A stretch of DNA of 64,000 nt from Balanoglossus misakiensis (Eukaryota > Animalia > Hemichordata). Below, in pieces: positions 331 to 21,386 of this stretch (the stretch's first letter is position 1; every line of letters starts with the position of its first letter). Below the pieces are notes generated by a model. That model was not told the DNA's origin. It did no database searches and saw nothing but the letters and a program-made list of their open reading frames with translations. A program made the position numbers and the translations under genes. Location: NCBI GenBank assembly GCA_040954595.2, contig CM082594.2, positions 824,247 to 888,246 of the forward strand, given 5' to 3'.

Positions 331-792
331 TAATTTTGTCTTGGGTGATTCAAATTATACCGCCTTTTCTGGAATTTGCAGCACTTTTTACAAGAGAACG
401 ACACTTCATGCTCCATAATATTTCCGAAAATGAAGAAAAGAGTTATTTTTTATGATTTTTTTAAAAATTTACCATTTTTGTCATAATATGGCCAAAATGG
501 CTATTTTTTCTTGAATTCCGTCTATATCTCTGCATTTTTGGAGTGGTCGAAACTTTTAACATACAATCAACATGTCATATATAATCAGGGCACCGAATTC
601 GAAGAACAATTAAAGCTTGTTTTAATTGTTTTTCTAAAAATGACATTTTCAAGGAAAATTTGGTAAAACGCAATTTTGTCTGCAGTGAGCCAAATTAGAC
701 TGTCTTTTGTGCAATTTGTATCGATATATACATACGAAGAGCATTCTATACTCCATCAGATATCCGAAAATGTAGAAAACAGGTATTTTTTG
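331..792. repeat. ~340-bp diverged AT-rich subrepeat within the macro-unit (continues at 7141-7422 and 8138-8640)
   Basis: 'aattttgtct...ctcca...ccgaaaatg.agaaaa.agtta' recurs at ~331 and ~672, and 'aaaatttaccatttttg...aacatacaa...atcagg..accgaatt' recurs at ~7273 and ~8331. Confidence 0.7.
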
Positions 793-1781
793 TGTCACAA
801 AGTGTCTATAGGGTTGTGTGTTGTCTTGTGTGTCCAGTGTTGTTTTTGTGTGGTGGTTAAAGGTTAGTTAGGATTTGCTGCACGTCTACTTGTCTGAGGT
901 GGTTAGACAGTCAGTTACACATATTACCATCGGACGGCTTTGACAAAATGAACTCTGCTATGACACACCACCAGTGTGAATAACTGCGCATGGACAATTC
1001 ACCAGCCCTGGATTACATAATCTCTGCACTGATTTGGTTTGCATGAATAATTCGGAGGTGATAATTCGGGGAGAAACGAAAACAATAGACAGTGGAGAAC
1101 AGTGGACAATCATTCTGAATAAATTATTGTAGAAAATATGTACAGCAATGCACCTGGAAGGTGGTATAAAAGGCTGCGTGCCCATTCTTGAGGGGGAGAC
1201 TGACATGACAGCCAGCGGTAGCACTGAGGCACTGTGTGTGTAATCCTACCAGAATCTGACTGCCAGGCCTGTATGGCGAAACTACCACGGTGACGGAGTT
1301 TTCCACCAAGTGTGATACGAGACATCCTGTGCGGCCACGGATAAACCATCTTCTCGATGAAACTGGAACGACTGATATATTCTGCGACCCATTTCCCGGA
1401 ACATTGTCACTACTGAACTCACTGAACTCAACAATCTTTCTTAGCAAGGGTAGGACAACCGTTCGATAACCACCTGTTAATGTCTTTGTCATGTTTGTAC
1501 CGTTTCATGTCTTTGTGTTTGTGTTTTGTGTAATATTTCTTTACTGTGCATACAGTCCACTGGTATTTTGTCTATAGTGGCTGTCCCTGTACAATTTATT
1601 GGATCCATCGATACATTTCTGCAAGTTGAATAAATAGTCTATGCATAAATGTAATAACGTTTCTGAGTTTTACGATTCCCGTAGTAAGGGGTCCCCAGCA
1701 CACAAGAACCCAGTCACATGGTCTGAAGGAAAAGCTACCTGATACTGCTCAGTATCATCCCTTGTATCTTACCTTGTGACA
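793..1781 (+). repeat. 5' LTR of element 1 (989 bp)
   Basis: Inverted termini TGTCACAA/TTGTGACA; TATAAAA at 1165-1171; AATAAA at 1629-1634; direct repeat of 4242-4875. Confidence 0.95.
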
Positions 1782-1785
1782 TATT

Positions 1786-1803
1786 TGGTGGCAGCGGTGG
1801 GAT
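1786..1803 (+). promoter_or_regulatory. Primer-binding site, tRNA-Leu
   Basis: TGGTGGCAGCGGTGGGAT after a 4-nt spacer from the LTR end; complementary to the 3' end (...AUCCCACCGCUGCCACCA) of metazoan tRNA-Leu. Confidence 0.85.
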
Positions 1804-1972
1804 AGTTTTCATTGAAATTCATATCTTTCGGATTTTTTTGTTTATTCCCACCGTTTATTTCTTGGACACCCATCGTGGTTCCTGGTATATAACAAAAACT
1901 ACAAAAGGGGAACAAATTGGCCAATCTTGTTGGTGTTGGTGAATCGTAAACTCAGGGTATAATATTTGTAGG

Positions 1973-2305
1973 ATGGATCTGGCTGAAATTAAGAGAGTTG
2001 GTGAAGAGATAGGGTTAGAAGGAGGAGACTTTGCTGATTTCATAAAAGAACAACAAAACATAGCACGAGAACAACAAAACAGAGCACGTGAAGAGAGACA
2101 GGCAAAACGAGAAGCTGATAAATTGGAAACTGAAGTAACTTTGCGTACACTAGAGTTTGAACAGGAAAAGTTAATGTCAGCTGAAAGACAGAGAGAGAAA
2201 GACAGGCAATTCGAACAAGAAAAATTAACCAGTTACAGACAATTTGAACTTGAAAAATTGAAATGGTTAAAAAGCGAACCTGTAGAACAGAAGTTGAGTC
2301 TAAAA
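1973..2305 (+). pseudogene. gag: Gag N-terminal coiled-coil fragment (truncated by internal deletion)
   Basis: MDLAEIKRVGEEIGLEG...EQQNRAREERQAKRE...FELEKLK, first ORF after the PBS; capsid and CCHC parts are absent. End coordinate is approximate. Confidence 0.8.
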
Positions 2306-4111
2306 TCACCCTCTCGCAATCAAGGTACAAATTGCATTTTGACAAGAAAACCAGTGATAGGACTTTCAAGGTCGGGGATAAGGTCTTGCTTTTACTTCCT
2401 ACAGAGCTTGACAAATTAAAAATGCAATGGCAAGGCCCATACACTGTAAAAGAAAGGGTTGGTCTGATGGACTATCGACTGGAAGTTAAGACAAGGTTGA
2501 AATTATATCATGCTAATTTATTGAAGAAATATGAAGAACGTGGGGAGGACAAGGATGAGCATGAGCCAATTAGTGGCGGTGTGATGGAATGTGTATGTAT
2601 TGGGGTAATAGAAAGTAAAGAGGTGGATGAGGATGAATGTAATGAAAATAGTGATCAGGGACAGGGGAATGATTTGATAGAAACTACCTCATCGCTAGGG
2701 AAAGAAAGTATTGAGGATGTGCAAAATCTGAGTGCAGAACAAAACCAAGATGTGAGAAGAACTCTGAGACAATTTGCGCATATACTGACTGACATGCCTG
2801 GGAAATTAAAAGTAGGGGAACATGATATCAAGTTAATATCCAATGACCCTATTAGGTCTAAACCGTATCCACTGCCATTTGCATTACAAGACACTGTGTG
2901 TCAGGAAGTTGACAGTATGCTAAGAATGGGTGTGATTGAACCATCAGATTCTCCATATGCATCCCCCATTGTCTTAATTACAAAAAAAGATGGCACCGTT
3001 CGATTTTGTATCGACTTTAGAAAGTTGAACAAAGTCACCACCTTTGATGCAGAACCAATACCAAATTCTGATGAGTTATTTACTAGATTAACCGAGAGCA
3101 AATACTTTACTAAGTTAGATCTTACCAAAGGGTATTGGCAAATCCCAATGGCAGAGGGGGCAAAGGACAAAACCGCCTTTCTCACCCCTAAAGGATTGTT
3201 TCAGTTTCGGTTTATGCCATTTGGTCTTGTCAATGCTCCGGCGACCTTCAGTCGTATTATGAGAATAGTTCTCAGAGGATTGCAAGGAAGGGTTGAAAAT
3301 ATAATAGATGACATCTTAATACACAACCAGTCATGGGCAGATCATATTGATACCATAACGGAAGTACTCAGAAGACTAGATGAAACAGGTTTAACTGCAA
3401 AGCCCAGTAAATGTTACATAGGATATCAAAATTTGGAATTTGTGGGACATTTGGTTGGCCAGGGGTTATTGCAAATGCAGCCACAGAAATTGGAGGCACT
3501 TCTTCGTGCAGAAAAACCCCGTACATGCAGTAAAGCAAGTTCGTTCGTTTCTGGGAATGGCCAGCTACTATAGAAAATTCATACCAAACTTTGCATCTAT
3601 AGCAGCGCCACTCAGTGACCTCACTAGAAAGGGACAACCAAAGGTGGTTCACTGGGGTATGCCACAGGAGAAGGCCTTTACTGAATTGAAAAGGGCCCTG
3701 AGTAACTATCCGGTTCTAAGGCTGCCAGATTTTTCAAAGCCTTTCATTTTAAGGGCTGATGCATCAGATAATGGACTGGGGGCAGTCGTCTTGCAAGAAC
3801 ATGAGAGCAACAAATTCCCAATAATTTATGCAAGTAGAAAATTGCTTAAAAGGGAGACAGCATATTCAGTGATTGAAAAAGAATGTTTGGCAATTATCTG
3901 GGGTATTTGTAAATTCCAACAGTACCTTTATGGGAAAGAGTTTGTGATTGAGACTGACCACCAGCCACTTATCTACTTAAGCCGTGCCAAAGTATCAAAT
4001 AGTCGGTTGATGCGTTGGGCTCTGTAATTGCAGTCCTTTCGCTACAGGATCGTTGCTATCAAAGGTACAGACAATGTTGAAGCTGACTACTTGAGCCGAA
4101 GCACAGGGTAA
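2306..4111 (+). pseudogene. pol: pol remnant: integrase C-terminal GPY domain, reverse transcriptase, RNase H; frameshift ~3525 and premature TAA 4025-4027
   Basis: FKVGDKVLLLLP..WQGPY..YHANLLKKY; RT motifs RFCIDFRKLN, KLDLTKGYWQ, MPFGLVNAPATF, IIDD; RNase H ADAS, EKECLA, TDHQPL; the frame continues past the stop as LQSFRYRIVAIKGTDNVEADYLSR. Confidence 0.93.
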
Positions 4112-4228
4112 AGCCGTTATATTTCAATGAATACCTAAGGTGAGCAAAAGGAAATAGTATTTCAGCTTCCCCATATAGCTGTAACTATAGAAACTTTTCA
4201 GTTTTAAGACGAAACTAGTTCCGTCTTT

Positions 4229-4241
4229 GAAAGGGGAGTAG
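4229..4241 (+). promoter_or_regulatory. Polypurine tract of element 1
   Basis: GAAAGGGGAGTAG immediately before the 3' LTR. Confidence 0.85.
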
Positions 4242-4875
4242 TGTCACAAAGTGTCTATAGTGTTGTGTGTTGTCTTGTGTGTCCAGTGTTGTTTTTGTGT
4301 GGTGGTTAAAGGTTAGTTAGGATTTGCTGCACGTCTACTTGTCTGAGGTGGTTAGACTGTCAGTTACACATATTAGCATCGAACGGCTTTGACAAAATGA
4401 ACTCTGCTATGACACACCACCGGTGTGAATAACTGCGCATGGACAATTCACCAGCCGTGGATTACATAATCTCTGCACTGATTTGGTTTGCATGAATAAT
4501 TCGGAGGTGATAATTCGGGGAGAAACGAAAACAATAGACAGTGGAGAACAGTGGACAATCATTCTGAATAAATTATTGTAGAAAATATGTACAGCAATGC
4601 ACCTGGAAGGTGGTATAAAAGGCTGCGTGCCCATTCTTGAGGGGGAGACTGACATGACAGCCAGCGGTAGCACTGAGGCACTGTGTGTAATCCTACCAGA
4701 ATCTGACTGCCAGGCCTGTATGGCGAAACTACCACGGTGACGGAGTTTTCCACCAAGTGTGATACGAGACATCCTGTGCGGCCACGGATCAACCATCTTC
4801 TCAATGAAACTGGAACGACTGATATATTCTGCGACCCATTTCCCGGAACATTGTCACTACTGAACTCACTGAACT
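4242..4875 (+). repeat. 3' LTR of element 1, truncated (634 bp)
   Basis: Matches 793-~1427 with about 8 substitutions and 1 indel by eye; breaks off after actgaact. Confidence 0.93.
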
Positions 4876-5410
4876 AAAATTAAATTAAAAAAATAAAGAA
4901 TGTTTTGCCTAAAAATGACCTTTTTGGTGCAAAAACGAATAAAACGCAATTTTGTATTAAATCAGCTCATTCAGAGTGCATTTTTTATAATCAGCACCAT
5001 TTTTACATATAATGGAAATTTCTTACATCATCAGATATCCAAATATGAAAAAATGATTTAGATTTTAGATGATTGTCCAAAATTAGCTGATATCTAATAA
5101 ATGTAGTATTGAACCGTTCTGTTCCCCCCCCCCCCCTACATTATATGCGGTACGCCGATGTCAGCTTACCCGGCAGTACTGCAGGCCGTGCCCCCAACTA
5201 ACGTCGGTGTTTGAAACGCCCTGGTTAAATTCGGGCTTTCTCTATAAATTGACAGGCAATAATGCAGTCCTACCCGAACAAATGTCGAGTGTTGACCCGC
5301 TGTGACTTTCCCTCTTCGGTTTGCCCGACTTAGCCAACGTCTTTGTACTAGAGTGTCGGGTCTTTTGCAGAGCCAGGCCGAAGGAAATCCGACTTGATCA
5401 CCGTTGCTAA

Positions 5411-6371
5411 GTAAAGGATAATGTACGAGTGGAGTGCAATCGTTCAGATATTGAACGACACGAGGGCCGCAGGCCCGAGTGTCGTTCAATATCTGAACGA
5501 TTGCACGACACGAGTACATTATCCGGCTTACAATACGTCGCAACATCTGTGTTCTTGATATATGCTAAACAACTTCTCAACCACATCAACCAATCACAAG
5601 CGTCGCAAAATACACCTGGTGTATGATTTCGATTTCGATTGGATACTTGTCAACCAGGGCATTTGTCACGTGGTCATTGAGGTGCCACGTTTCCATCATC
5701 ATTCGGAACTCAACCTTCGACAGACAAACACCATGGCCGAAAGTAGCGACGAGCACGAGCTTTTCATTACCCATGGAGCACGTTCCGACACCCAAGCGAA
5801 AGCGAAGGGCGTAGCTTTTACGATATGGACTGGATTTTCCAAGATTTTGGTAGCTTCATTGAAGAGAATGTACATAAACCATCGGTCATGGAAAGTGTCC
5901 TGCAGAAAATCAAGGGTGCCTTTCTCCTGGCCTGCAGCCGCCATTGCGCACATCCTCAGTCTGTTAGTACCATTTTTTTGTCATTTTCCTCGGAACTTGT
6001 AAATTTGTAGTTTTATATTGATCAGGAATGTTCGATTGTACGTCAGCGTAGGCACTTCAGGGAAGTTTTGGTACGTCGAAAAAAATCAAGCTTTCAGGTG
6101 AATCCGTGTGTGAGGTAGAAACGAACCCCCAACCAAAGGTTGAGCCCTGCAGCGCAGAGATCACGACAAAGAAAGATGGACGAACCAAGTGTGTGCACCT
6201 GGAAGCAGTTCTTCCCGCCGGAGGCAGCACCTCCTGTCAAAGCTATCTTGTTTGTTGTAGTGAATCTTATTATGCCAGGTGCAGTGCAATATCCAGATAT
6301 TGCACTGGTACCAGTGCATTATCATAGATAATGTCCCAAGAGAACAAAGAGTCTGGTCACATGTAGTGTTG
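5411..6371 (+). mobile_element. Non-autonomous hairpin element without TIRs, Crypton-like (tyrosine-recombinase type, tentative)
   Basis: The empty site is seen at 8981-8996 (ccgttgctaa|cgaacg). TAA is present on both sides (5408-5410, 6372-6374), and a long palindrome lies at the 5' end. The insertion is certain; the family is inferred. Confidence 0.7.
5416..5524 (+). other. 109-bp hairpin with three tandem GA/GA mismatches and a GCA loop
   Basis: ggataatgtac-GA-gtg-GA-gtgcaatcgttcagatattgaacgacac-GA-gggcc-GCA-ggccc-GA-gtgtcgttcaatatctgaacgattgcac-GA-cac-GA-gtacattatcc. Confidence 0.97.
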
Positions 6372-6374
6372 TAA

Positions 6375-7015
6375 CGAACGCTAGTGTCTGTCATGGTGTG
6401 CCAGGGTTTTAGTCGAGCCAGGCCGTAGGAGATCTGACTTGATCAACGTGGTCAATGTACGCGTGTTTCCGCTCTAAAGTGCCGGGGCTTCAGCTAAACC
6501 AGGCCGTAGGAAACCCGACGTGATTACCGTTGTTAACTTACGCCAGTCTGTGTCCTATATATAGTGCCGGGGCATCAGCCGTGCCAGGCCGAAGGAAATG
6601 TGAGTGGATCAACGTGGTCTCTGTACGCATGTTTCTGCTCTAAGGTGCCAGGGCTTTAGCCAAGCCATGCCGTAGGAAATCTGACTTGATCAACGTTGCT
6701 ACCGAACGCTATTGTCTGTCATAGTGTGCCGGGGTTTTAGTCGAGCCAAGCCGTAGGAGATCAGACTTGATCAACGTGGTCTCCGTACGCGTGTTTCTGC
6801 TCTAGAGTGCCGGGGCTTTATCCAAGCCATGCCGTAGAAAATCTGACTTGATCACCGTTGCTAACGTACGCCAGTGTCTGTCATATTGTGACGGAGATTT
6901 AGCCGAGCCAGGCCGTAGAAAAATCGACTTGTTCAACGTTACCTGTGTGCAACTGTTTCTGCTCTAGAGTGTCAGGGTTTTCGCCGACTTATGCTGTAGG
7001 AAATCTGAGTTGATG
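6375..7015. repeat. 81-bp diverged subrepeat array (A/B alternation, ~162-bp dimer); also at 1-205, ~5280-5410 and ~8860-9318
   Basis: Motif gccg(t/a)ag(g/a)a..tctgacttgatca starts at 6422, 6503, 6588, 6669, 6750, 6831 and 6912 (spacing 81, once 85). Alternate units carry 'cgttgcta..c(g)aacgc.agtgtctgtcat' or 'cgtggtc..tgtacgcgtgtttctgctcta'. Confidence 0.85.
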
Positions 7016-7422
7016 AACCGGAATTCAATGTTAGAAAACCCGTGTGGAAAGTATCTCTACCCGTTTGAAACTAAGAAAAGAATTTATTCTTATTTATTTT
7101 GTAAAAAAGACAATTTTTCGAAAAAAAAGTCGAAAATGGTAATTTTGTCTTGGGTGATTCAAATTATACCGCCTTTTCTGGAATTTGCAGCACTTTTTAC
7201 AAGAGAACGACACTTCATGCTCCATTATATTTCCGAAAATGAAGAAAAGAGTTAATTTTTTATGATTTTTTAAAAATTTACCATTTTTGTCAAAATATGG
7301 CCAAAATGACTATTTTTTCTTGAATTCCGTCAATATCTCTGCATTTTTGGAGTGGTCGAAACTTTTAACATACAATCAACATGTCATATATAATCAGGAC
7401 ACCGAATTCGAAGAACAATTAA

Positions 7423-8137
7423 GGTGGCATTGCATGAAAACTTGTGATTTTTGCCAAATTTAATTTTTTTTACATAAATCGGTAGGCCTAATACTGACCC
7501 ACATTCTGACTAATACGTCTTGGCCTAAATGGTGCATAATCACCCCAAAATAGCACTTTTCTGAATGAGTTCACAGCTTAACAAATAGGTGTCAACAATG
7601 CAAATGGCCGTTTTTGTCAGTTTGCATTTTCGCTGCTCTTGACAACTTCAGACTAAAATAGCTTCGCTCTGCATTGGCCAAGTGTGCTCAAATTTCAACA
7701 GGGGATTGTGTATGACCCATCCAACAAAACGGTATTTTTGTTAGTCGATAAAGTGTCCCTGGCGGGAATAAACTCTGATTCAATACAACTCACCGTGAAT
7801 TTGATCAAATTTTACAAAAAATCTAACTTTCAAACGCTGTTACTCCTCAATGGAAGCAGATAACGCAAAACAAAATTACGTTTTTTTGCACGTGTACTCT
7901 AGTTTCGAATGACATATTTAGATGCATGATGCATGGTCAACTTTTTTGCCTAATTTAAATTTAATGATATAATATCAAAAAATGTTTTTTTTCACCCAAA
8001 ATCGATAATATTTGCAACTCAAACAAAAGTTCAAAAACTCAGCTTCCAGAATATATATGGTTTATGGGGGTTTTAACGTTGTCTTTGATGAGAAATAGGC
8101 CTCTGAAAAAGTCTCGACGGTTTCATGCAATGCCACC
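7423..8137. mobile_element. 715-bp MITE with TTAA TSD, Kolobok-like
   Basis: Perfect 17-bp TIR GGTGGCATTGCATGAAA/TTTCATGCAATGCCACC; TTAA at 7419-7422 and 8138-8141; empty site gaacaaTTAAagc at ~604-616. GG...CC termini fit Kolobok better than piggyBac (CCY). Confidence 0.85.
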
Positions 8138-9320
8138 TTAAAGCTTTTTTTAATTGTTTTTCTAAAAATGACATTTTCAAGCAAAATTTGATAACATGCA
8201 ATTTTGTCTGCAGTGAGCCAAATTAGACTGTCTTTTGTGGAAGTTGTATCGATATATACATACGAAGGGCATTCTATACTCCACCAGATTACCGAAAATG
8301 TAGAAAACAGTTATTTTTCGTAATTTTCAAAAATTTACCATTTTTGACAAAATGTGGCTAAAATGGTTATTTTCGTCTTGAATGCCGCCAGTGTCACTGC
8401 TTTTAAGAGTCATAAAAACTTTCAACATACAAGCAATTGTTTATATATGATCAGGTCACCGAATTAAAAAAAATAAAGAATGTTTTGCCTAAAAATTACC
8501 TTTTTGGTGCAAAAACGAATAAAACGCAATTTTGTATTAAATCAGCTCATTCAGAGTGCATTTTTTATAATAAGCACCATTTTTACATATAATGGAAATT
8601 TCATACATCATCAGATATCCAAATATGAAAAAATGATTTAGATTTTAGATGATTGTCCAAAATTAGCTGATATCTAATAAATGTAGTATTGAACCGTTCT
8701 GTTCCCCCCCCCCCCCTACATTATATGCGGTACGCCGATGTCAGTTTACCCGGCAGTACTGCAGGCCGTGCCCCCAACTTACGTCGGTGTTTGAAACGCC
8801 CAGGTTAAATTCGGGCTTTCTCTATAAATTGACAGGCAATAATGCAGTCCTACCCGAACAAATGTCGAGTGTTGACCCGCTGTGACTTTCCCTGTTCGGT
8901 TTGTCTGACTTAGCCAACGCCTTTGTACTAGAGTGTCGGGTCTTTTGCAGAGCCAGGCCGAAGGAAATCCGACTTGATCACCGTTGCTAACGAACGCCAT
9001 TGTCTGTCATGGTGTGCCGGGGTTTTAGACGAGCCAGGCCTTAGGAGATCTGACTTGATCAACGTGGTCAATGTACGCGTGTTTCCGCTCTAAAGTGCCG
9101 GGGCTTCAGCTAAACCAGGCCGTAGGAAATCCGACGTAATCACCGTTGATAACTTACGCCAGTCTGTGTCCTATATATATTGCCGGGGCATCAGCCGTGC
9201 CAGGCCGAAGGAGATGTGAGTAGATCAACGTGTACGCGTGTTTCTGCTCTAGAGTGCCAGGGCTTTAGCCAAGCCATGCCTGTGAAATCTGACTTGATCA
9301 ACGTTGGTAACGAACGTTAA

Positions 9321-9360
9321 GCCTGAAATGACATTTTCAAGCCTGAAATGACATTTTCAA
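9321..9360. repeat. 20-bp tandem duplication at the satellite boundary
   Basis: gcctgaaatgacattttcaa occurs twice. Confidence 0.95.
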
Positions 9361-11080
9361 GCCTGTCTTAGGTCACCACTTCATAAGCGGTCTTACCCGT
9401 CATTGGCACAAACAGTCTCAGGAAGTAAGCTTTCAGCCTACCAATGTAGCTATTGTATTTTCCACTTTTTGTAAGTGAAGCCTGACTGTCGCCTGTCTTA
9501 GGTCACCACTTCATAAGCGGTCTTACCCGTCATTGGCACAAACAGTCTCAGGAAGTAAGCTTTCAGCCTACCAATGTAGCTATTGTATTTTCCACTTTTT
9601 GTAAGTGAAGCCTGACTGTCGCCTGTCTTAGGTCACCACTTCACAAGAGGTCTTACCCGTCATTGGCACAAACAGTCTCAGGAAGTAAGCTTTCAGCCTA
9701 CCAATGTAGCTATTGTATTTTCCACTTTTTGTAAGTGAAGCCTGACTGTCGCCTGTCTTAGGTCACCACTTCATAAGCGGTCTTACCCGTCATTGGCACA
9801 AACAGTCTCCGGAAGTAAGCTTTCAGCCTACCAACGTAGCTATTATATTTTCCACTTTTTGTAAGTGAAGCCTGACTGTCGCCTGTCTTAGGTCACCACT
9901 TCATAAGCGGTCTTACCCGTCATTGGCACAAACAGCCTCAGGAAGTAAGCTTTCAGCCTACCAATGTAGCTATTGTATTTTCCACTTTTTGTAAGTGAAG
10001 CCTGACTGTCGCCTGTCTTAGGTCACCACTTCATAAGCGGTCTTACCCGTCATTGGCACAAACAGCCTCAGGAAGTAAGCTTTCAGCCTACCAATGTAGC
10101 TATTGTATTTTCCACTTTTTGTAAGTGAAGCCTGACTGTCGCCTGTCTTAGGTCACCACTTCATATGAGGTCTTACCCGTCATTGGCACAAACAGTCTCA
10201 GGAAGTAAGCTTTCAGCCTACCAATGTAGCTATTGTATTTTCCACTTTTTGTAAGTGAAGCCTGACTGTCGCCTGTCTTAGGTCACCACTTCATAAGCGG
10301 TCTTACCCGTCATTGGCACAAACAGTCTCAGGAAGTGAGCTTTCAGCCTACCAATGTAGCTATTGTATTTTCCACTTTTTGGAAGTGAAGCCTGACTGTC
10401 GCCTGTCTTAGGTCACCACTTCATAAGCGGTCTTACCCGTCATTGGCACAAACAGTCTCAGGAAGTAAGCTTTCAGCCTACCAATGTAGCTATTATATTT
10501 TCCACTTTTTGTAAGTGAAGCCTGACTGTCGCCTGTCTTAGGTCACCACTTCATAAGCAGTATTACCCGTCATTGTCACAAACAGTCTCAGGAAGTAAGC
10601 TTTCAGCCTACCAATGTAGCTATTGCATTTTCCACTTTTTGTAAGTGAAGCCTGACTGTCGCCTGTCTTAGGTCACCACTTCATAAGCGGTCTTACCCGT
10701 CATTGGCACAAACAGTCTCAGGAAGTAAGCTTTCTGCCTACCAATGTAGCTATTATATTTTCCACTTTTTGTAAGTGAAGCCTGACTGTCGCCTGTCTTA
10801 GGTCACCACTTCATAAGCGGTATTACCCGTCATTGGCACAAACAGTCTCAGGACGTAAGCTTTCAGCCTACCAATGTAGCTATTGTATTTTCCACTTTTT
10901 GTAAGTAAAGCCTGACTGTCACCTGTCTTAGGTCACCACTTCATAAGCGGTCTTACCCGTCATTGGCACAAACAGTCTCAGGAAGTAAGCTTTTAGCCTA
11001 CCAATGTAGCTATTGTATTTTCCACTTTTTGTAAGTGAAGCCTGACTGTCGCCTGTCTTAGGTCACCACTTCATACGCGG
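9361..11080. repeat. 130-bp satellite, boundary block (~13 monomers)
   Basis: gcctgtcttaggtcaccacttcataagcggtcttacccgtcattggcacaaacagtctcaggaagtaagctttcagcctaccaatgtagctattgtattttccactttttgtaagtgaagcctgactgtc starts at 9361, 9491, 9621 and so on. Confidence 0.99.
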
Positions 11081-11934
11081 TGTTACGTAGGTTCAGTCGG
11101 CTATTGTTTTGTGACCAGGTGTGTTTTTCGTGTGCGTTTCGTTTGCTTTCTTTATTTGAATATTTAAGTGACCAGGTGTGAGGAATTAATTTTTGGCTAG
11201 TTTAAAAGCCCGCTCGTTGCCACGTTGTGCGAGTGGATGTTAATTTGACCTGGAGGACGTGCTGCTCGTTTGAACCGTCTTGGAAGCTGTGGCTGCTCTT
11301 CTGAACAATTTGTAAGTCGTGCTGTTTCGTGTGGAGCGGACTTTTGAAGCGGACTTTTGTGGAGCAGACTTTTGCGGACTTTTGTGGAGCAGACTTTTGC
11401 GGACTTTTGTGGAACCAGTTGGAGCTGGACTTTTGCCTGGACCGCCGTGTCGCTGTGTCTACGCTGAACTGCCGCCGAGTTGGAGCTGTCGTTGTGTCTA
11501 CGCTGAACTGCCGCCGAGTTGGAGCTGTCGTTGTGTCTACGCTGAACTGCCGCCGAGTTGGAGCTGTCGCCGTGTCGCTGTGTCTACACTGAATTATCGC
11601 TGAGTTGCTGTGTCTACGTGTCCTCCGTCAAGTCAGCGGAACGTTCTAGCGGACATTGGACTTGTTCTGTTTCAGTTTATGCACACCTGGTCACGTTTAA
11701 AAAGGTAGTTCACTTGTTTCTTGTGTGTTTCTTTAGTTTATAATATTTAATGTTCACGATTACTTTAGTTATTATTAAATTCGTTATAAATAAGGTGATT
11801 TGCTGGTTGATGTGACTTTTGTTGACCAACTTTGTTGCGTGCGGCGCTGGTTTGGTTCCTTACAAAGTACGCCATCCGGCTAGTGTGTTTATTGCTCGCC
11901 CTGTTTCGGCTGGAACGGCCAGCGTGTCGTAACA
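11081..11934 (+). repeat. 5' LTR of element 2
   Basis: TGTTACG...CGTAACA; about 9 substitutions versus 21387-22240. Confidence 0.97.
11336..11590 (+). repeat. LTR-internal minisatellites: (g/a)gacttttg repeats and three 39-bp units (same at 21642-21896)
   Basis: gacttttg recurs 7 times; tgtgtctacgctgaactgccgccgagttggagctgtcg occurs three times plus a partial copy. Confidence 0.9.
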
Positions 11935-11937
11935 AAT

Positions 11938-11955
11938 TGGGGGCTCGTCCGGGAT
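11938..11955 (+). promoter_or_regulatory. Primer-binding site, tRNA-Pro
   Basis: TGGGGGCTCGTCCGGGAT, the well-known tRNA-Pro PBS, after a 3-nt spacer from the LTR. Confidence 0.93.
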
Positions 11956-12013
11956 CTATCCTTGAATTCATTCAGTGCGCACGGTCAACAACGGTTCACA
12001 ATTACTATTCGTA

Positions 12014-13201
12014 ATGGCTTCCACAGCGGAGTTCAACGTAACTGAGTTTGTCAAAAATGAAAATTTAACTGTTGATGATTTACAACGTTTGCGAAAGGCA
12101 GAACTAAAGCAGGTAGCTGCTCATTTTGGTGTCAGTCTTGGTAGTAATGTAACAAAAAAGGAAATTATTGATAGTATTTCTGCTTTCCTTGGTTTGACTA
12201 AACATGGTATGCATAATGCTGAGAGTACTGAAGTGGCATTGGCAAAAATTGAACTTGAAAGAGAGAAATTAAGACTTGCTCAAGAAAGAGGAGAGGCCCA
12301 ATTATTGAGAGAAAAAGAAAGAGAACAATTCGAGTTGAGGAAGTTAGAACTTGAACTTCAGTTAAGTCGACAGAATCATGAACCTGTTCAGAGCACTACG
12401 AGAAGTTCTGATTTTGATGTTACTAAATATCTTAAGTTGGTCCCAAGGTTTTCTGAAGCCGAAGTAGATACTTACTTTTTGGCTTTTGAGAAAATTGCGA
12501 GACAACTTAAGTGGCCAACTAAATTTTGGACTTTGTTGCTTCAAAGTGTGTTTGTTGGGAAAGCCCAGGAAGTGTTTTCTTCCTTGTCCGATTCAGATTC
12601 TGAAGATTATGAAATTGTCAAGAAAGCAGTTCTATCCGCTTATGAGTTAGTTCCCGAGGCTTATAGACAGAAGTTTAGAAATTTAAGGAGACAGACTGGG
12701 CAAACCTTTGTTGAATTTGCAAGAGAGAAGGAAATTATATTTGATAGATGGTACCGTTCCTTGCAAACTGAAAAAGAATTTAATATACTGAGGGAGGTAA
12801 TACTCATGGAGGAATTTAAGAACAGCATCCCTTTGGACATTAGAACCCATATTGATGAACATAAAGTTACAGAACTAAAGCGGGCAGCTGTTATTGCTGA
12901 TGATTATGAGCTTACTCACAAGAAAAGTGGTAGTAGCTCACCTAATTATAATAGGTATGGTAATAAACCTTTCACTAATTATGCAAAATTTGATAACAGG
13001 GTAAATCATCCTAGTCCAGACAGAAAGGGCCAGTCTGTTGCTGCTAATAAGCCACCTGAGATTAGAAGGGGTCCTGTCTGTTTCCATTGTGGTAAAGTGG
13101 GGCACATTAAGTCTCACTGTTTGCAATGGAAGAAGAGTAACCAGAGGGATAGTAAACCTGTGGCTTTTGTTAATAGAAATGCGCGATATCCGTACAGATA
13201 G
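12014..13201 (+). CDS. gag: Gag with SCAN-like capsid region and CCHC zinc knuckle
   Basis: ATG at 12014 (MASTAEF); coiled coil; VPRFSEAEVDTYFLAFEKIA..W..LLLQSVFVGKAQ; YELVPEAYRQKFR; LREVILMEEF; CFHCGKVGHIKSHC. Confidence 0.9.
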   Translation: MASTAEFNVTEFVKNENLTVDDLQRLRKAELKQVAAHFGVSLGSNVTKKEIIDSISAFLGLTKHGMHNAESTEVALAKIELEREKLRLAQERGEAQLLREKEREQFELRKLELELQLSRQNHEPVQSTTRSSDFDVTKYLKLVPRFSEAEVDTYFLAFEKIARQLKWPTKFWTLLLQSVFVGKAQEVFSSLSDSDSEDYEIVKKAVLSAYELVPEAYRQKFRNLRRQTGQTFVEFAREKEIIFDRWYRSLQTEKEFNILREVILMEEFKNSIPLDIRTHIDEHKVTELKRAAVIADDYELTHKKSGSSSPNYNRYGNKPFTNYAKFDNRVNHPSPDRKGQSVAANKPPEIRRGPVCFHCGKVGHIKSHCLQWKKSNQRDSKPVAFVNRNARYPYR

Positions 13202-13831
13202 TCATATAAATATTGGTGATAAGTACCAAAGTTTGCCTGCACGAGATAACTGTAAAATCCCCAAGTCTATTCCTGACGGTTTTAGGGATTTTGTATCCCA
13301 AGGAGAGGTATCTGAATTATCTGACGTGCATGAAGTGAAGCCCATTATCATACTGAGGGATACTGGTGCCGCTCAATCATTAATGTTAGCAGACGTCTTG
13401 CCAGAGAATGTATGGCGTTCAATGGATACCAGAATGTTGCTGCAAGGTATAGGTGGTAATTTTGTTTCGGTTCCTTTGTGTGAGGTTAATTTGAATTCTG
13501 ACCTAGTCAATAGAGGGGGTAGATTTTCTCTTGGGGAATGATTTAGCTGGGGGAAAGGTTCAAGTCCCTCCCATACTTACTAAATTTCCATCTGTCCAAC
13601 CGGCCACAGAGGAATTAAAGGATACATTTCCGGGTATATTTCCATCATGTGCAGTTACCAGGTCACAGTCACGTGTTGCGCGTTTAGATGAGGCGAATTC
13701 TCCCGACGTTCCCAATTCTGGTGTTTGGTTGGCAGAAACATTTTTCAAAGATTTAGACAGTGGGGATGGTCTATCTAAACCTGGTGATTCTGAGACCGTG
13801 TTTACTCAGACTTCTCTAATAAAAGAACAAA
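13190..13831 (+). pseudogene. pol: Aspartic protease and linker, frameshifted
   Basis: IIILRDTGAAQSLML (GAT at 13359); a short deletion/frameshift at ~13515-13535 before LGNDL; CAVTRSQ; interrupted after LIKEQ by a nested insertion. Confidence 0.88.
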
Positions 13832-13835
13832 TAGT

Positions 13836-14899
13836 CAGGTGGAAATTTCAGAAAATGAGCATTTTAAAAGCATGTCAGGCATTTTTTGGTACAAGCTGGG
13901 AACAAGTTGTTTTTGGATATTTCGAATACGCTGATTTCGAATTTGCCTGTTCCCAAAAATTCTTTTCACGTTTTCATGTCGAAAATGGCAAATTAATTTG
14001 TGACGTCATAATTTCAAAATACCTAAAAGAAAACGCTGTTTGTAGCCATTATGGTGCAATATCACAGGTCAACACCATAATAGTCTATTGAAATCATATT
14101 CTTATATTCATTTAAATATTTGTAAACAATTTTTTTAATTTAGAAACATTTTGTGAATTGGTAAAATGCTAATTTATGTTAATTAGGTCCAGGTGGAAAT
14201 TTCAGAAAATGAGCATTTTAAAAGCATGTCATTCATTTTTTTGGTACAAGCTGGGAACAAGTTGTTTTTGGATATTTCGAATACGCTGACTTCGAATTTG
14301 CCTGTTCCCAAAAATTCTTTTCACGTTTTCATGTCGAAAATGGCAAATTAATTTGTGACGTCATAATTTCAAAATACCTAAAAGAAAACGCTGTTTGTAG
14401 CCATTATGGTGCAATATCACAGGTCAACACCATAATAGTCTATTGAAATCATATTCTTATATTCATTTAAATATTTTTAAACAATGTTTTTAATTTAGAA
14501 ACATTTTGTGAATTGGTAAAATGCTAATTTATGTTAATTAGGTCCAGGTGGAAATTTCAGAAAATGAGCATTTTAAAAGCATGTCATTCATTTTTTTGGT
14601 ACAAGCTGGGAACAAGTTGTTTTTGGATATTTCGAATACGCTGACTTCGAATTTGCCTGTTCCCAAAAATTCTTTTCACGTTTTCATGTCGAAAATGGCA
14701 AATTAATTTGTGACGTCATAATTTCAAAATACCTAAAAGAAAACGCTGTTTGTAGCCATTATGGTGCAATATCACAGGTCAACACCATAATAGTCTATTG
14801 AAATCATATTCTTATATTCATTTAAATATTTTTAAACAATTTGTTTAATTTAGAAACATTTGGTGAATTGGTAATAATGCTAATTTATGTTAATTAGGT
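13836..14899. repeat. Three near-identical ~355-bp tandem copies of the left end of the TIR element
   Basis: caggtggaaatttcagaaaatgagc starts at 13836, 14190 and 14545. Confidence 0.95.
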
Positions 14900-15219
14900 G
14901 ACACGCCCATCTAAAATCAATGGGTCTACAAAAGAGAGCCAACGGTGTTAAGTGAGGTGTCTATTCCAATGTTTTCAGGGTCAAGGAATTCAAATATGCA
15001 ATCGTTTACCTTGTCAGACAAGGTGCAGCATGAAAAATATGCAAAATTAGCTTAATTAGTCATGATGTCATGCTAAAATTGACAACTGAAAGCTAAAGAT
15101 ACGACTTTGGCCTGTCAGGTGTCTATTCATATGTTTTTTGACAAATGTTTGCATTTTAATGAATAACTGAAATGAAACTTTTCATATTTGTATGTAATAG
15201 CATGTAAAAAACAACAAAA

Positions 15220-15252
15220 TCAAACAAACTAACAAACAAACAAACAAATAAA
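15220..15252. repeat. Imperfect (AAAC)n microsatellite
   Basis: caaacaaactaacaaacaaacaaacaaataaa. Confidence 0.7.
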
Positions 15253-15730
15253 CATACACAACGAGGATTTAGTGTAGACTGTACATGCTCGCTGGTAACA
15301 TCGTGACCAACCGCTCCGTTAAAAAACACCAGAACATTGAACGTATGAACGTTTAGGTCCACAATTCACAAGTTATTGAACTATGAATGTATGTTCAATG
15401 TTGTGAAAAGCCAAAAACATACTTTTTGCCAACAAAACTGACATTTGTTAACGTACAAGTTGTTCATTAATAGCGAAAGCACCGTATGGCCACACTCACA
15501 TTATGCCAGCACCATATATTCATGCTTAGTTATAAGACGTTGAATGCACACTGATGGCCCGACGTCCTCGGTGTTTTTTTGAAACCCGGTCTCTAACAAC
15601 AATTTCTCTTCATAAGTAAAGAGTAATGTGTATTTTTATTACGGTTTTATATATGATACTGTGTGCAAAGTGAAGATTGTGTCAGTGAGGCAACATATAT
15701 ACATGTATGTTTAATCCACTTGGGTGTCGT

Positions 15731-17953
15731 ACTTGGCTCAGATGTGCGTTAATGTGTACTAAACAAATTCAGATAGCGAGCCACAATATCTGTTGATGAG
15801 TTTCCATGGCAATTTTTTTCAAAATGGCCGCCAATACAGATGATCTCACCCACAAAATACCAATTATAAAACACCAAAATAAATTCATATTACAATATTT
15901 GAAACAAGAAACTGCTCAAAGAGTAATTTTCAAAATATTTATCATCACTAAACTAGTTATAGGGGTAAATACAGGATCGAGATTCAGTCGCTAAAGAAAT
16001 TCAAGTTTGGTAATAACACCGGTTACAACAAACTTAGTTAAAACACTGTATAACCATAGATATATTATAATAGTGGCCTGGCATAAACAAAATTTTCATA
16101 ACATTTGGGCATTTTGTGATAAAAGTTTAACAAGTAAAGCTCAGTTGATTCGTTCTTTTCCCCATAAAAATATCTTTGATGAACAAAATTCCAAATTTAG
16201 TCAACCCAGGAAAAACGGCATCTTGTTTCTCAACCTTATAAATTGATCTGACCAGTTTGAATCAGTGCAGAATCTAGCTTTTCTATTTTATCTTCATCAA
16301 ATGATTTATGCAAATAAAGAATCACTTCCCCATAAAATGGTGGCAGAAATCCAGTATCATGACAGTCGATTGGTTTGTTAAAGTTACTATAGAAACTAAC
16401 TATGTCTAGGTTGCATGTACATAGATAGATGTTAGGAATCCAAATCAAAATCTGTTTCAAACTTTTCATCCAATACTTGTCCTTCGGAAAGTGTTTTGAT
16501 GAAGTCGCTTGAAGTGCTTTGTATTGCTCAAGTTATCGATAATTTTAATTGCACCTTGATGATAGTCAGCAGTTCTATTTTGACATGTTATTTTGTGTAT
16601 TTTTGAACCCCCAAAATCAAAGAATAAAATGATAAAGTGAAAATAAGCTTCAAAACACCAAAAGTCTTCAGGATCACAGCTTTTCTGTAAAGAGTAAGAT
16701 TTCGCTTACTTCATGCTATTAAATGAAATGAAGTTTTCCGTAATATCTCTTGCAAAGTCAGATTACACATTGAGATATTAGAATGGAAGTACATTCCAAG
16801 TGACTTGTTGGGAGCATTGGGCCACCTAATCCCAGAAAATTGCAATAAGACCTGTTTTTTCCATTTACCAATCTAAAGGCCAACTGCTTGTATATTTAGT
16901 TGGGTTTCTATAATTAACACACATTTTTGACAATATTTATGGCATGATGGACACTATTCTCGACAAATAAAATAATGTTGTGTCCTCCGCTGTAATTTTT
17001 ATGAGTTTGGAATCATAGACACCATTTATTTTTTGGTCAACTCTGTTAACAGTCGACAAAATTGCTGGAGTGGAACTGATACATGATCTAAAGTATCAAG
17101 ACATATGGTCGATTATTAACGTTTCAGCAATTCGACTTAAGTTTCTTAAATTTCCTATGGCATTTTGACAAACATCAACGCCCCGAAAAAACGTTGTCAA
17201 CGCTGCGGTCGCGATTGTGGTCGAAACAAAGCCGACATTTTCGCATGGTTCGTTACCCGGGGTCCATTTAGATTGCATTGCGTTTGAGGCCCTATGTGTA
17301 TGTCTGACGACCAATAAACGTGACGACCGCGGACTCAGTTTGGATCAACGTCTATTTCGGGCAGTAGACTCTCCTATCAAGTTGATAAGGAAATTTTACC
17401 AGTCACGAGTAAGCCAAGCCCACATCCGTGTGCAAATCTGATATATCGGTGATCTGTTTATATGATTATCATTAGCTAAGGTGGTAAACTGTTGTGATTC
17501 ATATGTGTAATTTACGTACTGCAAGTTAAATATCGCAATTAGCCTAATGTTTGACCATAGACAGTATGGTTTGATTTCTAGAGGAGCACCTATTAATCCG
17601 AGAACAAAGGGATTAAAAGTTGCGCCGTTAAATTGTGTTTTAATAACTTACTTACCCCTATAAGTAGTTTAGTAACCATAATATCTTTGAAAATCATTGT
17701 TTCCACAGTTCCTTGTATCAAATATAGAAATCTAAATTTATTTTGGTGTTCACAGATGTTATTTGGTGGGTGAAATTATCTGTATTGGTGGCCATTTTGA
17801 AAAATTGGTTGCCATGGAAACTCATCAACAGATATTTAGTGGCTCGCTATCTGAATTTGTTTAGTACACATTAACACACATCTGAGCCAAGTTTGGTGCT
17901 TTTATCACAAAATGCACAATCGCTATGAAAATTAGGGTTTGGCCGCTCCACTA
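15731..17953. mobile_element. Second, inner long-TIR element (Academ-like), left terminus missing
   Basis: 15731-15968 is the diverged reverse complement of 17652-17892 (acttggctcagatgtg.gttaatgtgtactaaacaaattcagatagcgagccac...). The right arm continues to ...GGCCGCTCCACTA at 17953, taken as the terminus. Confidence 0.75.
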
Positions 17954-18489
17954 CAGGGCTTTAGACGGCCATATTGAATTGCCACATCGAGGCTCTTATC
18001 TCAAAATGAACTTCACACTTGAAGTATTGTTTTGAACAAGGTTTAAGTCCTTTACTAAAATAAAGAAAAGGTTATTCTTTCCAATGGTTGTGAGTTTTCA
18101 GTACATGTACTGTTACACCTAGCTTTATTATTATTTGGTAGCCAAAAATCAACGAATTATTCATACAATATGCAAATTTGTGCATAATTATTGTTTTATT
18201 ATTGCTATTTTGTGTTTATACAACCAAAAAAGTTGTTGATGTAAACATGTAGTTTATTTTCATTGTTTAAGGAGGTACGTGAACATTTCTTTGATGCTAT
18301 TCATGTGAGAATTGCGATCCTTGGCGGCCATATTTGATTTGCCAAAACGAGGCTCTTATCTCAAAAAGATCTTTTGGGAACAGGCATTTTCGAAATCAGC
18401 GTAGTCGAATTGACCAAAAAACATATTTGGTTTGCTTGTACCAAAAAATGCCAGAGGGGGTCACAATTTCTCAAATCTCCACCTGACTA

Positions 18490-21252
18490 AAAAGGCTGAT
18501 CCATTCTGAATGACTTAATTCATAAGGCATTATCAGAATCCGAAGCCAACAATGTTCCAGAATGTTATTACATGAAGTCAGGAATTTTAATGAGAAAGTG
18601 GAGACCACCGTCTGTTCCTGCTGATCAGGATTGGTTGGTGAAAAATCAAATAGTGGTACCTGCATGTTATCGTCCTGAAATTCTGCGTTTGGCCCACGAA
18701 ATTCCTATGGCTGGGCATTTGGGCATTCGAAAAACACAGTGCAGGGTTATGGCTCATTTTTATTGGCCAAAATTGCATCAGGATGTTGTTGAATTTTGCA
18801 AAACCTGTCATACGTGTCAGCTGTTAGGCAAACCCCAGCCGGCGATCAAACCCGCTCCATTAATTCCAATTCCTGCGTTCGGCGAACCCTTCAGTAAGGT
18901 TCTAATTGATTGTGTGGGCCCTTTGCCGAGAACCAAATCTGGTAATAAATATCTTTTGACAATTTTAGACACCTCGACCAGATTTCCTGAGGCTATTCCT
19001 TTGAAAAACATCTCTACCAAAGTAGTAGTTGACGCGCTAATGCATTTCTTCACACGATATGGTTTGCCCAAGGAGGTCCAAACAGATCAAGGGTCCAACT
19101 TTATGTCTGGTTTATTTCAGGAAGTGTTGTGTCAATTCGGGGTTACACAGTTGCATTCGTCGGCCTACCATCCTCAATCTCAAGGTGCGTTGGAAAGGTA
19201 TCACCAAACGCTAAAGAATATGTTGAAGGCATACTGCTTGGAATACCCTGGGGATTGGGATAAGGGCGTTGCATTTGTATTATTTGCCACAAGGGATGCC
19301 CCTAACGAATCAACTGGTTTTACTCCCTTTGAACTCGTATATGGTCATGAAGTCAGGGGCCCTCTTAAATTCATCAAAGAGAGATTGCTTAATGAACAGG
19401 ATGATGTCAACCTCCTGGATTACGTTTCCAAATTTCGAGAACGTTTGACTAAGGCCTGTGATTTGGCTAGACACCATCTGAAACTGTCTCAGCAAACCAT
19501 GAAGAGGTATTATGATAGGGATAGTCAATTTCGCAAATTTAAAGTTGGTGACAAAGTTCTAGTTTTGTTACCTATACCAGGTGAACCATTATCCGCTAAA
19601 TTCAGGGGGCCCTATGAAGTAGAAAAGAAATTGAATAGTGTGAATTATGTTATCCGAACCCCTGACAGACGCAAGACACGCAGGGTTTGTCATATTAATA
19701 TGTTGAAGCTGTATTTTGTTCGTGAAGGTGACCATAAGCATTCCGTTGGTTTGGCTGCTGCTGTCAACAATATGGATGTTCACAATGTCGATTGCAATGA
19801 TACAGAATGTGTTGAGTTTGAGGTGACTGAAGTTGATTCTTTGACGGGAAAATTGTCTAATTCGGAAGCACTTGCTAATTTACAGTCTACTTTGTGTCAC
19901 TTGCCTGAGAATGAAAGGGCTGGCATTGTCAAACTTATAAATGAATATAAACCTCTGTTTTCCGATGAACCGGGTTGCACGTCCATAGCTGAACATGACG
20001 TAGACGTCGGCAATGAACCACCTATCAAACAACACCCCTATAGGTTAAATCCTTATAAAGCAGCCAAAGTTGAGGAGGAATTGCAGTATATGTTGGACCA
20101 CGACCTAATTGAACCAAGTGAGAGTAGTTGGAGCTCTCCAGTAGTGTTAGTACCAAAGCCAGACAAGTCTTTGAGATTTTGCATAGATTATCGCAAGGTA
20201 AATGCTGTTACGCGTACTGATTCCTATCCACTTCCTCGAATTGAGGATTGCATTGACAAAATTGGTACAGCCAAGTATGTAACCAAAATTGATTTGTTGA
20301 AAGGTTATTGGCAAGTACCTTTGTCTAACAGAGCCAGGAAAATTTCTGCTTTCATTACTCCAAACGGATTGTACCAGTTTAAAGTAATGCCCTTTGGCAT
20401 GAAAAATGCCCCGGCTACATTTCAAAGGTTGATGAACAAGGTCACAGCCGGTTTAGCATATTGTGTTGTGTATATTGATGATATTCTGGTTTTCAGTGAC
20501 ACATGGGAAGATCATGTAACCCATTTAAGGAATCTGTTTCAGCGGCTTCACGAGGCTAATCTGGTGGTTAATCTGTCAAAGAGTGGTTTTGCCAAAGCCA
20601 AAGTGGTTTATCTTGGGCATGTCATAGGTGAAGGCAGAGTGTCTCCAAGACAAGCGAAAATTCAAGACATCATAGAGTTTCCAGTGCCTACAAATAAGCG
20701 AGAATTACGTCGTTTTCTAGGCGTGTCGGGGTTTTATCGGAAATTTTGTGCAAATTATAGCACCATTGTTGCTCCTCTCACTAATTCGATTCGACCGATT
20801 CGTGTCAAAATGCATTCGATGTAATAAAAGCAGTTCTAGCAAGTGAGCCAGTGCTTACGGCTCCAGATTTCTACAAGCCGTTTAAATTGGCTATTGATGC
20901 CAGTGATGTTGGTATCGGTGCCGTCTTATTGCAGGATGATGAATCAGGTATCGAGAAACCTGTCAGTTATTTTTCGAGAAAACTAAACCGTCACCAAAGA
21001 GTGTATTCTACCATTGAGAAAGAGGCTTTAAGCCTAGTGTCTGCTCTTCAGCATTTTGAAATTTATGTGACTAATGGGGTAGGTGATGTTACTGTTTACA
21101 CAGATCACAACCCACTTGTATTTCTTGACAAGTTCAAAACAAAGAGTAACAGGTTGTTTCGCTGGAGTTTGTTGCTTCAGCCTTATTCAATTAAAGTCGT
21201 ACATATTTCTGGAAAAGAAAATGTCATTGCAGATGCACTATCCAGAGTTTAG
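18490..21252 (+). pseudogene. pol: pol: integrase (HHCC, DDE, GPY), reverse transcriptase, RNase H; frameshifts at ~18503 and ~20785
   Basis: AHEIPMAGHLG..CKTCHTC; IDCVGP, TDQGSNF, ALERYH; FRGPY; RFCIDYRKVN, MPFGMKNAPATF, YIDD; IDASD, EKEAL, TDHNPL, ADALSR. Longest open stretch is 18572-20824. Confidence 0.96.
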
Positions 21253-21375
21253 AATGTATAACAGGATAGCTTTTTGAAATGATTCTTGAATGATTCTTGA
21301 AATGATGTTTTTGAAATAATTAACATATGTGATTACCCCTTGAAAAACGTCACCATGGTAACGTTTTTCTTTTCT

Positions 21376-21386
21376 GAGGGGGGAGG
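21376..21386 (+). promoter_or_regulatory. Polypurine tract of element 2
   Basis: GAGGGGGGAGG immediately before the 3' LTR. Confidence 0.9.

Follow-up and report, generated by a model that had tools for sequence, protein, structure and literature searches.

A GA/GA-mismatched hairpin at the left end of a Crypton-like element of Balanoglossus misakiensis: a probable site for recombination of a folded single strand

Animal Cryptons are described as mobile elements without terminal repeats by Kojima and Jurka in 2011 (PMC3212892) and again by Kojima in 2018 (PMC5753468), who also reported Eulor5/6 and the salmon Crypton-N as non-autonomous derivatives. The words "hairpin" and "palindrome" are absent from the main texts of both papers; their supplements and the Repbase or Dfam entries may note palindromes. 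According to a 2026 review, the mechanism of Cryptons is undemonstrated and a double-stranded DNA (dsDNA) circle is assumed as the intermediate (PMC13565253). For Chlamydomonas Cryptons, de novo data reveal clean excision along with copy gain, termed a "complex mode" by the authors (PMC9977147). Among the recombination systems that act on one strand, the integron attC site is characterized by the geometry of an unpaired central spacer (PMC2727003); integrons, which cleave AA|C, accept a change next to the cleavage position and depend on one homologous base (PMC2811028). In SE elements, a single strand becomes circular (PMC9345347). Here, we analyze a hairpin at positions 5416-5524 of a 64,000-nt stretch of DNA from the hemichordate Balanoglossus misakiensis (contig CM082594.2), referred to as the window throughout. 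With a probability of roughly 0.6, we read it as the left terminus of a CryptonA-type, non-autonomous element; when folded, the top strand would be an attC/CTX-like site recombined by a Crypton enzyme. Cryptons themselves are known. Our literature searches, which left most subscription papers and Repbase Reports outside their scope, retrieved no account of Cryptons with GA/GA hairpins, paired ends or recombination of a folded strand; the end design was thus not found described in the literature searched.

The hairpin is 109 nt long, lies on the forward strand and is composed of two pairing arms of 53 nt each, 5416-5468 and 5472-5524. The only mismatches within the arms are found at 5427-28/5512-13, 5432-33/5507-08, and 5462-63/5477-78, each of which sets 5'-GA opposite 5'-GA. 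A C-G pair closes the loop, GCA (5469-71), and the stem ends abruptly, with no pairing beyond 5416/5524. Arms, mismatch sites and C-GCA-G apex had been reported in an earlier note on this DNA, and all were confirmed. The folding z-score amounts to -12.7, and none of 200 shuffled sequences was equally stable. Two of the three GA/GA steps stand in the C-GA-G context, for which sheared G·A pairing is known, and triloops of GNA type give stable loops in DNA (PMC10085684). In a simulation of decay, substitutions were added to a perfect 53-bp stem until six pairs were mismatched. At least two GA/GA steps were obtained in none of the 400,000 trials and a single step in 931, which renders an origin by decay improbable and argues for a selected pattern, as the earlier note had supposed. 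It had further proposed a branched fold through a nested mini-palindrome. The palindrome (CGTTCA-N5-TGAACG) is present at 5441-5457; it is unused in the minimum-free-energy fold, and visual inspection showed no evident counterpart in the central stems of the other families. We rejected the branched fold.

The earlier note did not recognize that the hairpin forms the left end of a separate insertion of 964 bp (5411-6374), nor that a foot behind it pairs with the far end of this insertion. A second copy of the host segment 4883-5410, at 8462-8990, continues uninterrupted and lacks 5411-6374; hence, the hairpin starts five bases inside the left end of the insertion. The empty paralogous site (8960-9030) is confirmed by contig joints skipping 964 bases, and the element is multicopy, as many contigs start at 5411 with foreign flanks. 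It has no terminal inverted repeat (TIR) and no intact open reading frame (ORF), and is set in an 81-bp repeat array. TAA occurs at both junctions: the target triplet at 5408-5410 is host-derived and resembles the 3' triplet, which belongs to the element. The first seven nucleotides, GTAAAGG (5411-5417), are the predicted central spacer of a folded site and would fold against CCGGC (5523-5527) as 2 bp, a 3-vs-1 bubble, and 2 bp. Next to CCGGC lies the foot TTACAATAC (5528-5536), complementary to the last nine nucleotides of the element, GTGTTGTAA (6366-6374), which form the predicted cleaved arm with the cut after TAA.

By use of the apex pattern, we scanned 4 of 64 parts of a metagenome collection for relatives, which yielded 130 matches at 121 loci; an ungapped stem filter was passed by four of the 130, and folding was limited to loci with at most 50% GC. 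In viral contigs, the exact apex had no match and the degenerate apex 30, none of them with an extended stem, and an alignment of the recombinase (see below) gave no relatives there. The scan revealed a young family (L031 and others) with identical layout, a 311-bp element present at 15 loci in 18 copies, three of whose junctions are head-to-tail. Its non-tandem left triplets (n=15) are TAT in seven cases, TAA in four, TTA in three and TCA in one, and its non-tandem right ends (n=12) are TAA in eleven cases and CAA in one. The 7-nt spacer is found at 18 of 18 left ends and at none of the 12 non-tandem right ends. Since the left triplet varies, the right one is fixed and the spacer occurs on the left only, the target is not duplicated. 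An exchange of two strands with heteroduplex overlap would be expected to place the spacer at the right in about half of the cases; the one-sided scar thus shows single-strand exchange in the young family.

The scar by itself does not prove a folded substrate, because VGJ phage (PMC4246890) and SE elements (PMC9345347) exchange one strand from duplex DNA. This leads to the strongest alternative, which we consider rather unlikely: a Crypton end of which the double-stranded junction recombines with exchange of one strand, the hairpin serving for cruciform extrusion, for second-strand priming on an excised circle, or as an array of recombinase sites including the foot. Inverted triplets flank the 7-nt spacer in the duplex as well, and TAA, 7 bp, and WTA would equally make a normal tyrosine-recombinase core. 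In phages, GNA mini-hairpins are found at priming sites and at N4 promoters (PMC13037366), and the dsDNA circle is the standing Crypton model (PMC13565253). Near-equal strand energies and flipped caps, both given below, fit this alternative too.

Two other classifications of the element were rejected. A DDE cut-and-paste miniature inverted-repeat transposable element (MITE) of PIF/Harbinger type with a TAA target-site duplication (TSD) would have TIRs and a true TSD; there is no TIR, the flanks before 5411 differ among copies, and the triplets are not duplicated in the related young family. A parvovirus-type telomere was dismissed, as the hairpin is internal and no viral gene lies nearby. Several other arrangements were noticed. 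At L209:18500-19000, a hairpin with three GA/GA steps abuts a 303-bp element that is read in the opposite direction from this border and runs into the start of another copy; this arrangement is a nested or tandem insertion at element ends. Five AT-rich or non-animal contigs (L114, L123, L058, L102, and L144) contain clustered short GA/GA-plus-GNA hairpins with no long stem, and L142 shows such a cap with a long stem in apparently bacterial DNA. The cap may be a wider motif of single-stranded DNA (ssDNA).

A second sampling started from the protein and thus carries no bias from the apex pattern. Using the recombinase alignment and PF12012, we searched animal DNA within three genome bins and took 30 of 39 matches as loci. 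In 8 of 25 distinct loci, corresponding to seven families, a long hairpin is located not more than about 0.6 kb upstream of the recombinase match. Thus, the suggestion of the earlier note that the hairpin is part of a eukaryotic mobile element proved sound: the same design occurs upstream of DUF3504/Crypton tyrosine recombinases. The bins in question (G001, G002, and G003; loci L151-L159) are filed as bacterial and hold animal-like contigs with Crypton elements, some of them megabases long, which are host contamination of the reference bins. Three loci of this sampling (L153, L155, and L171) contain DUF3504 frames of 474-564 aa with no hairpin or cap nearby, and possibly represent a separate Crypton lineage or domesticated genes.

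For cross-family counts, we compiled 12 families: the query, two found by pattern, six by protein, one beside a recombinase, and two from a blind scan, picked by their cap. The tally omits L179 (same family as L206) as well as L200 and the TC/TC hairpin of L209, both of unclear orientation. Target triplet, 7-nt spacer, GA/GA stem, GNA cap, and foot are common to all 12 families, the stems of which are divergent. Their 24 two-by-two internal loops are composed of 15 GA/GA, two TC/TC, and seven others. In 400 kb of the same host DNA, 33 further long hairpins served as a control; 1 of their 39 two-by-two loops is of the GA type. The full cap occurs five times, as compared with 0-1 times in 20 shuffles. 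The left arms of other families match that of the window at only 16-24 of 45 bases; therefore, it is the design that is shared and not the sequence, and we infer the CryptonA membership of the window copy from its architecture.

A 2.2-kb member of the young family, L098, shows the same end layout around a recombinase frame with an apparent frameshift near its 5' end. Its protein matches DUF3504 (E 1e-34), QRICH1, and Phage_integrase. Among 78 aligned homologues, R182, K216, H307, R310, and Y342 are invariant and H333 is found in 76; the catalytic set R-K-H-R-H-Y is thus intact in the L098 family and 77 homologues, which do not include the window family's own partner. The structural model (mean predicted local distance difference test score 93.2) matches QRICH1 first, followed by Cre, Xer, IntI4, and Tn1549 Int. 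Another alternative is movement by an HUH enzyme (Helitron/Helentron, Replitron or IS200-like peel-and-paste), a type of enzyme that recognizes hairpins in single strands and does not duplicate the target. HUH transposons rely on hairpins at their termini, on ssDNA, and on one-sided targets (PMC13565253, PMC10288648), and Replitron-1 ends in TAAAGG, a word present at the left end of the window element. However, this word is not repeated at the right end, all coding elements found with this end layout carry a DUF3504 recombinase, and no HUH gene was seen inside them, an HUH profile search not being part of the analysis. We regard an HUH mover as quite improbable.

The main argument for folding is the co-variation of the foot with the far end. 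In the window, 5528-5536 and 6366-6374 form eight Watson-Crick pairs and one G·T pair, and the right end was fixed independently of this pairing. For a blind test, ten bases, counted from the sixth base after the hairpin arm, were compared with downstream sites in 12 families (L098 and L209 replacing L031 and L145) together with 300 shuffled feet each. In seven of the 12 families, a partner scoring 9.5-10 of 10 exists downstream, and shuffled feet performed as well in only 0-8 of 300 cases. For L098, the partner site is the element end as defined by copies; L209 scores 8, with a partner ending at the tandem junction; the far end of L168 was not found in this search. The 7-nt spacer register, which was set by hand in 12 families, predicts the far end in seven of them. 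In junction constructs, the top strand is more stable in nine of nine cases, by 0.5-8.9 kcal/mol, and carries the G·T wobbles at the junction. The likely recombination site is composed of hairpin base, foot, and far end rather than of the GA/GA steps themselves. Against recombination of a duplex junction, it speaks that foot and far end co-vary across divergent families at one 3-vs-1-bubble register, which is meaningful only in a folded strand, that the junction wobbles reside on the top strand, and that GA/GA steps deep in the stem are without a role in duplex DNA.

Variation among copies was studied in contigs from three runs on one sample of a single study (two of the runs are denoted X1 and X2), and these data are unphased. 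The window itself may derive from this sample. Positions 5482-83, TC in the window, read GA in 10 contigs of X1 and 8 of X2, with depths for 5482 T>G of 417.5/1901.7 (X1) and 1372.6/16057 (X2). The reciprocal change at 5457-58 appears in one contig per run and is so rare that most variant copies likely have a fourth GA/GA step, 5482-83 opposite 5457-58; a subfamily with four steps is likely on the basis of these unphased data. Variant 5534 T>C, at a level of about 55% in both runs (1269.8/2242.2 in X1, 5386/9831.6 in X2), turns the sole G·T pair between foot and far end into G-C and thereby renders the pairing perfect. The four basal GA dinucleotides are unchanged among the listed variants (the best 40 of 44 rows), and the apical ones show minor changes, mostly of CpG type. 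Single-contig rows changing GA to TC were not used, as these contigs are possibly misoriented. The GA/GA pattern, which might have been private to one copy, is family-wide and extended in the subfamily. Of the two things that the earlier note had wished to see in further copies, conserved GA/GA positions were found; compensatory stem changes within the family were not seen among the unphased read-table rows listed.

Several observations weigh against folded-strand recombination by a Crypton enzyme. Inside the window element, neither a recombinase nor a detectable remnant of one is present, no recombinase gene is tied by sequence to the window family, and 17 of the 25 DUF3504 loci are without such a hairpin or cap, including the long open frames of L153, L155, and L171. 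In the six protein-found families alone, the two-by-two loops are distributed as four GA/GA, two TC/TC and four others, three of the latter being one step from GA/GA; one-by-one mismatches comprise 15 G·T and six A·C, a weak bias (p=0.08). The window foot is not significant in the blind search (114 of 300 shuffles as good), nor are the feet of four further families. When the whole element is folded as a circle, the bottom strand folds better (-158.3 as compared with -153.5), and six foot pairs reach P of at least 0.91 on both strands; the remaining three have P of 0.43-0.50 on the top and at most 0.06 on the bottom strand. The first right-flank base after the inferred cut is T in four cases, A in four, G in two and C in two, i.e., without homology, unlike the one-nucleotide need of integrons. 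All read data stem from one sample, and the duplex systems named above also exchange one strand. Finally, the ViennaRNA DNA energies of the hairpin, -52.9 for the top and -51.7 for the bottom strand, differ by only 1.2 kcal/mol, so that strand specificity is not demonstrated by energy. The earlier note had considered the structure strand-specific; this part of its proposal now rests on the published sheared-G·A chemistry and on the comparative patterns.

A further adverse point is that the cap is flipped to TC/TC with a TTC or TGC loop in 2 of 12 families, L151 (2579-2676) and L168 (G001:C18 near 299,100). The L168 cap is the exact complement of the window cap, and in both families the ends and the ORF keep their orientation, which suggests arm-to-arm strand switching. 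Together with TC versus GA at 5482-83, these flipped caps make arm conversion evident, and CpG decay is common among copies; both would suit a neutral palindrome, a fold-back accident or MITE core, with mismatches originating from chance decay or from conversion between arms. This explanation is very improbable in view of the simulation (0 of 400,000), the recurrence of the design in divergent families and the single GA loop among 39 in the control hairpins. In its pure form, it is ruled out by the cross-family counts.

On balance, we retain folded-strand recombination for the window element and infer recognition of the folded strand by the recombinase. A CryptonA (DUF3504) tyrosine recombinase would mobilise the element in trans. 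Whenever the top strand becomes single-stranded, on the lagging strand or in a repair gap, the hairpin would close and the foot would pair with the far end. Arm 1 of the resulting site would consist of right end and foot, ending in TAA, and arm 2 of the hairpin base up to the first GA/GA step, separated by a spacer of 7 nt over 5 nt with the 3-vs-1 bubble. The recombinase is predicted to cut 3' of the triplet and to exchange only that strand. Excision would yield a single-stranded circle, the other strand serving as template for repair (copy-out); for insertion, one strand would be exchanged with a T-A/T/C-A/T-like target, and the product resolved by replication. Sheared GA/GA steps and GNA cap may nucleate and favor the top-strand fold. 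We lean slightly, and less firmly than for the window element, towards the general statement that animal CryptonA transposons move via a folded single strand: foot-paired ends would form a 3-vs-1-bubble tyrosine-recombinase site, sheared G·A pairs and GNA cap would select the strand, and a Cre-like enzyme would insert one strand into nearly any TAW-like target without homology.

Further parts of the element are as follows. A central-stem motif (5429-5456) recurs at 6279-6305, close to the right end, with a local alignment score of 16 over 28 nt, and motifs common to head and tail also exist in 5-6 of 8 other families; the repeated motif is likely an accessory protein-binding site and would act as such in the mechanism outlined. 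Two small subterminal palindromes (6282-6307 and 6317-6333, within 6279-6333) share words with the left hairpin. A decayed reading-frame remnant (5733-5935) has an ATG in good context about 140 bases 3' of a CCAAT word (5590-5594). It has no true Pfam match, with one sub-threshold hydrophobin row, no homologue among longer proteins, and weak matches only to 120 Crypton recombinases (E 0.006 or worse). Its phmmer match P0121, a repetitive bacterial STAND/TPR-like protein, was treated as spurious because the score adds up five repeats. An Rfam scan of 4800-9400 gave no match, and an RNA structure was discarded on this basis. All these features are given on the forward strand.

The window as a whole is repeat-rich animal DNA with Gypsy elements, an 81-bp array and a 130-bp satellite. 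A Gypsy long terminal repeat (LTR) retrotransposon occupies 792-4878; its 640-bp LTRs (792-1431 and 4241-4878) are 98.3% identical, and its pol, which includes reverse transcriptase (RT), is rearranged. A second Gypsy element (11197-21933) contains RT/integrase and a gag with a SCAN domain, enclosed by direct repeats at around 11.2-11.6 and 21.5-21.9 kb, and is interrupted by a 355-bp tandem triplet (13836-14899) and by an element with long inverted ends (approximately 15731-17892). Two thirds of the window (9361-11086 and 22243-64000) are made up of the satellite, whose copies are about 97% identical and start directly after the 81/162-bp array. The high-copy host repeat (5339-5410, 6368-7018, and 8919-9316) comprises a diverged 81/162-bp internal array and occurs within several duplicated blocks, with a read depth roughly 100 times that of the hairpin element.

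If the proposed mechanism is true, the end architecture names the substrate, the cut position and the rescue mutations, so that the Crypton mechanism becomes directly testable with oligonucleotides. The layout also provides a rule for locating Crypton ends, previously called hard to define, and would bear on how the ancestors of the domesticated DUF3504 proteins (QRICH1, ZMYM2-4, and KCTD1) bound DNA. For genome engineers, a eukaryotic integrase that reads structure, needs no homology and accepts single-stranded donors would be of interest.

Compared with described systems, the window element resembles CryptonA in the absence of TIRs and long direct repeats and in a short motif at each junction, supplied on one side by the target and on the other by the element. 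Non-autonomous copies are abundant, and the coding elements of this layout specify a DUF3504 tyrosine recombinase whose catalytic residues are intact. The window copy differs in encoding no recombinase. With integron attC/IntI, the predicted likeness lies in the folding of one strand, in arms of variable sequence, in a central spacer left unpaired by the cut (PMC2727003, PMC2811028), in a short relaxed triplet at the cut, and in one-strand exchange. In contrast to attC, the site is built from two ends about 850 nt apart and not from one palindrome, symmetric sheared GA/GA steps stand in place of extrahelical bases, the triplet is of TAA type and R/L boxes with a GTT/AAC crossover do not occur, and no one-nucleotide homology is seen after the inferred cut. 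The modelled L098 enzyme appears Cre-like by fold, with IntI ranked lower. As in CTX attP(+)/XerC/D (PMC4246890), two distant segments of one strand would pair into a site, and a single-strand exchange would be resolved by replication; however, CTX depends on Xer of the host, acting at dif, and on homology next to the XerC site, whereas here the enzyme is element-encoded and targets loose triplets. IS200/IS605 elements (TnpA, HUH) would share the strand-specific subterminal hairpin, the unduplicated target at the left end and the ssDNA circle (PMC13565253), but employ an HUH enzyme with a 5'-phosphotyrosine and small hairpins at both ends instead of a tyrosine recombinase and one long left hairpin. 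If correct, our reading would give integron and CTX recombination a counterpart in eukaryotes, one that has converged with the peel-and-paste mode of IS200.
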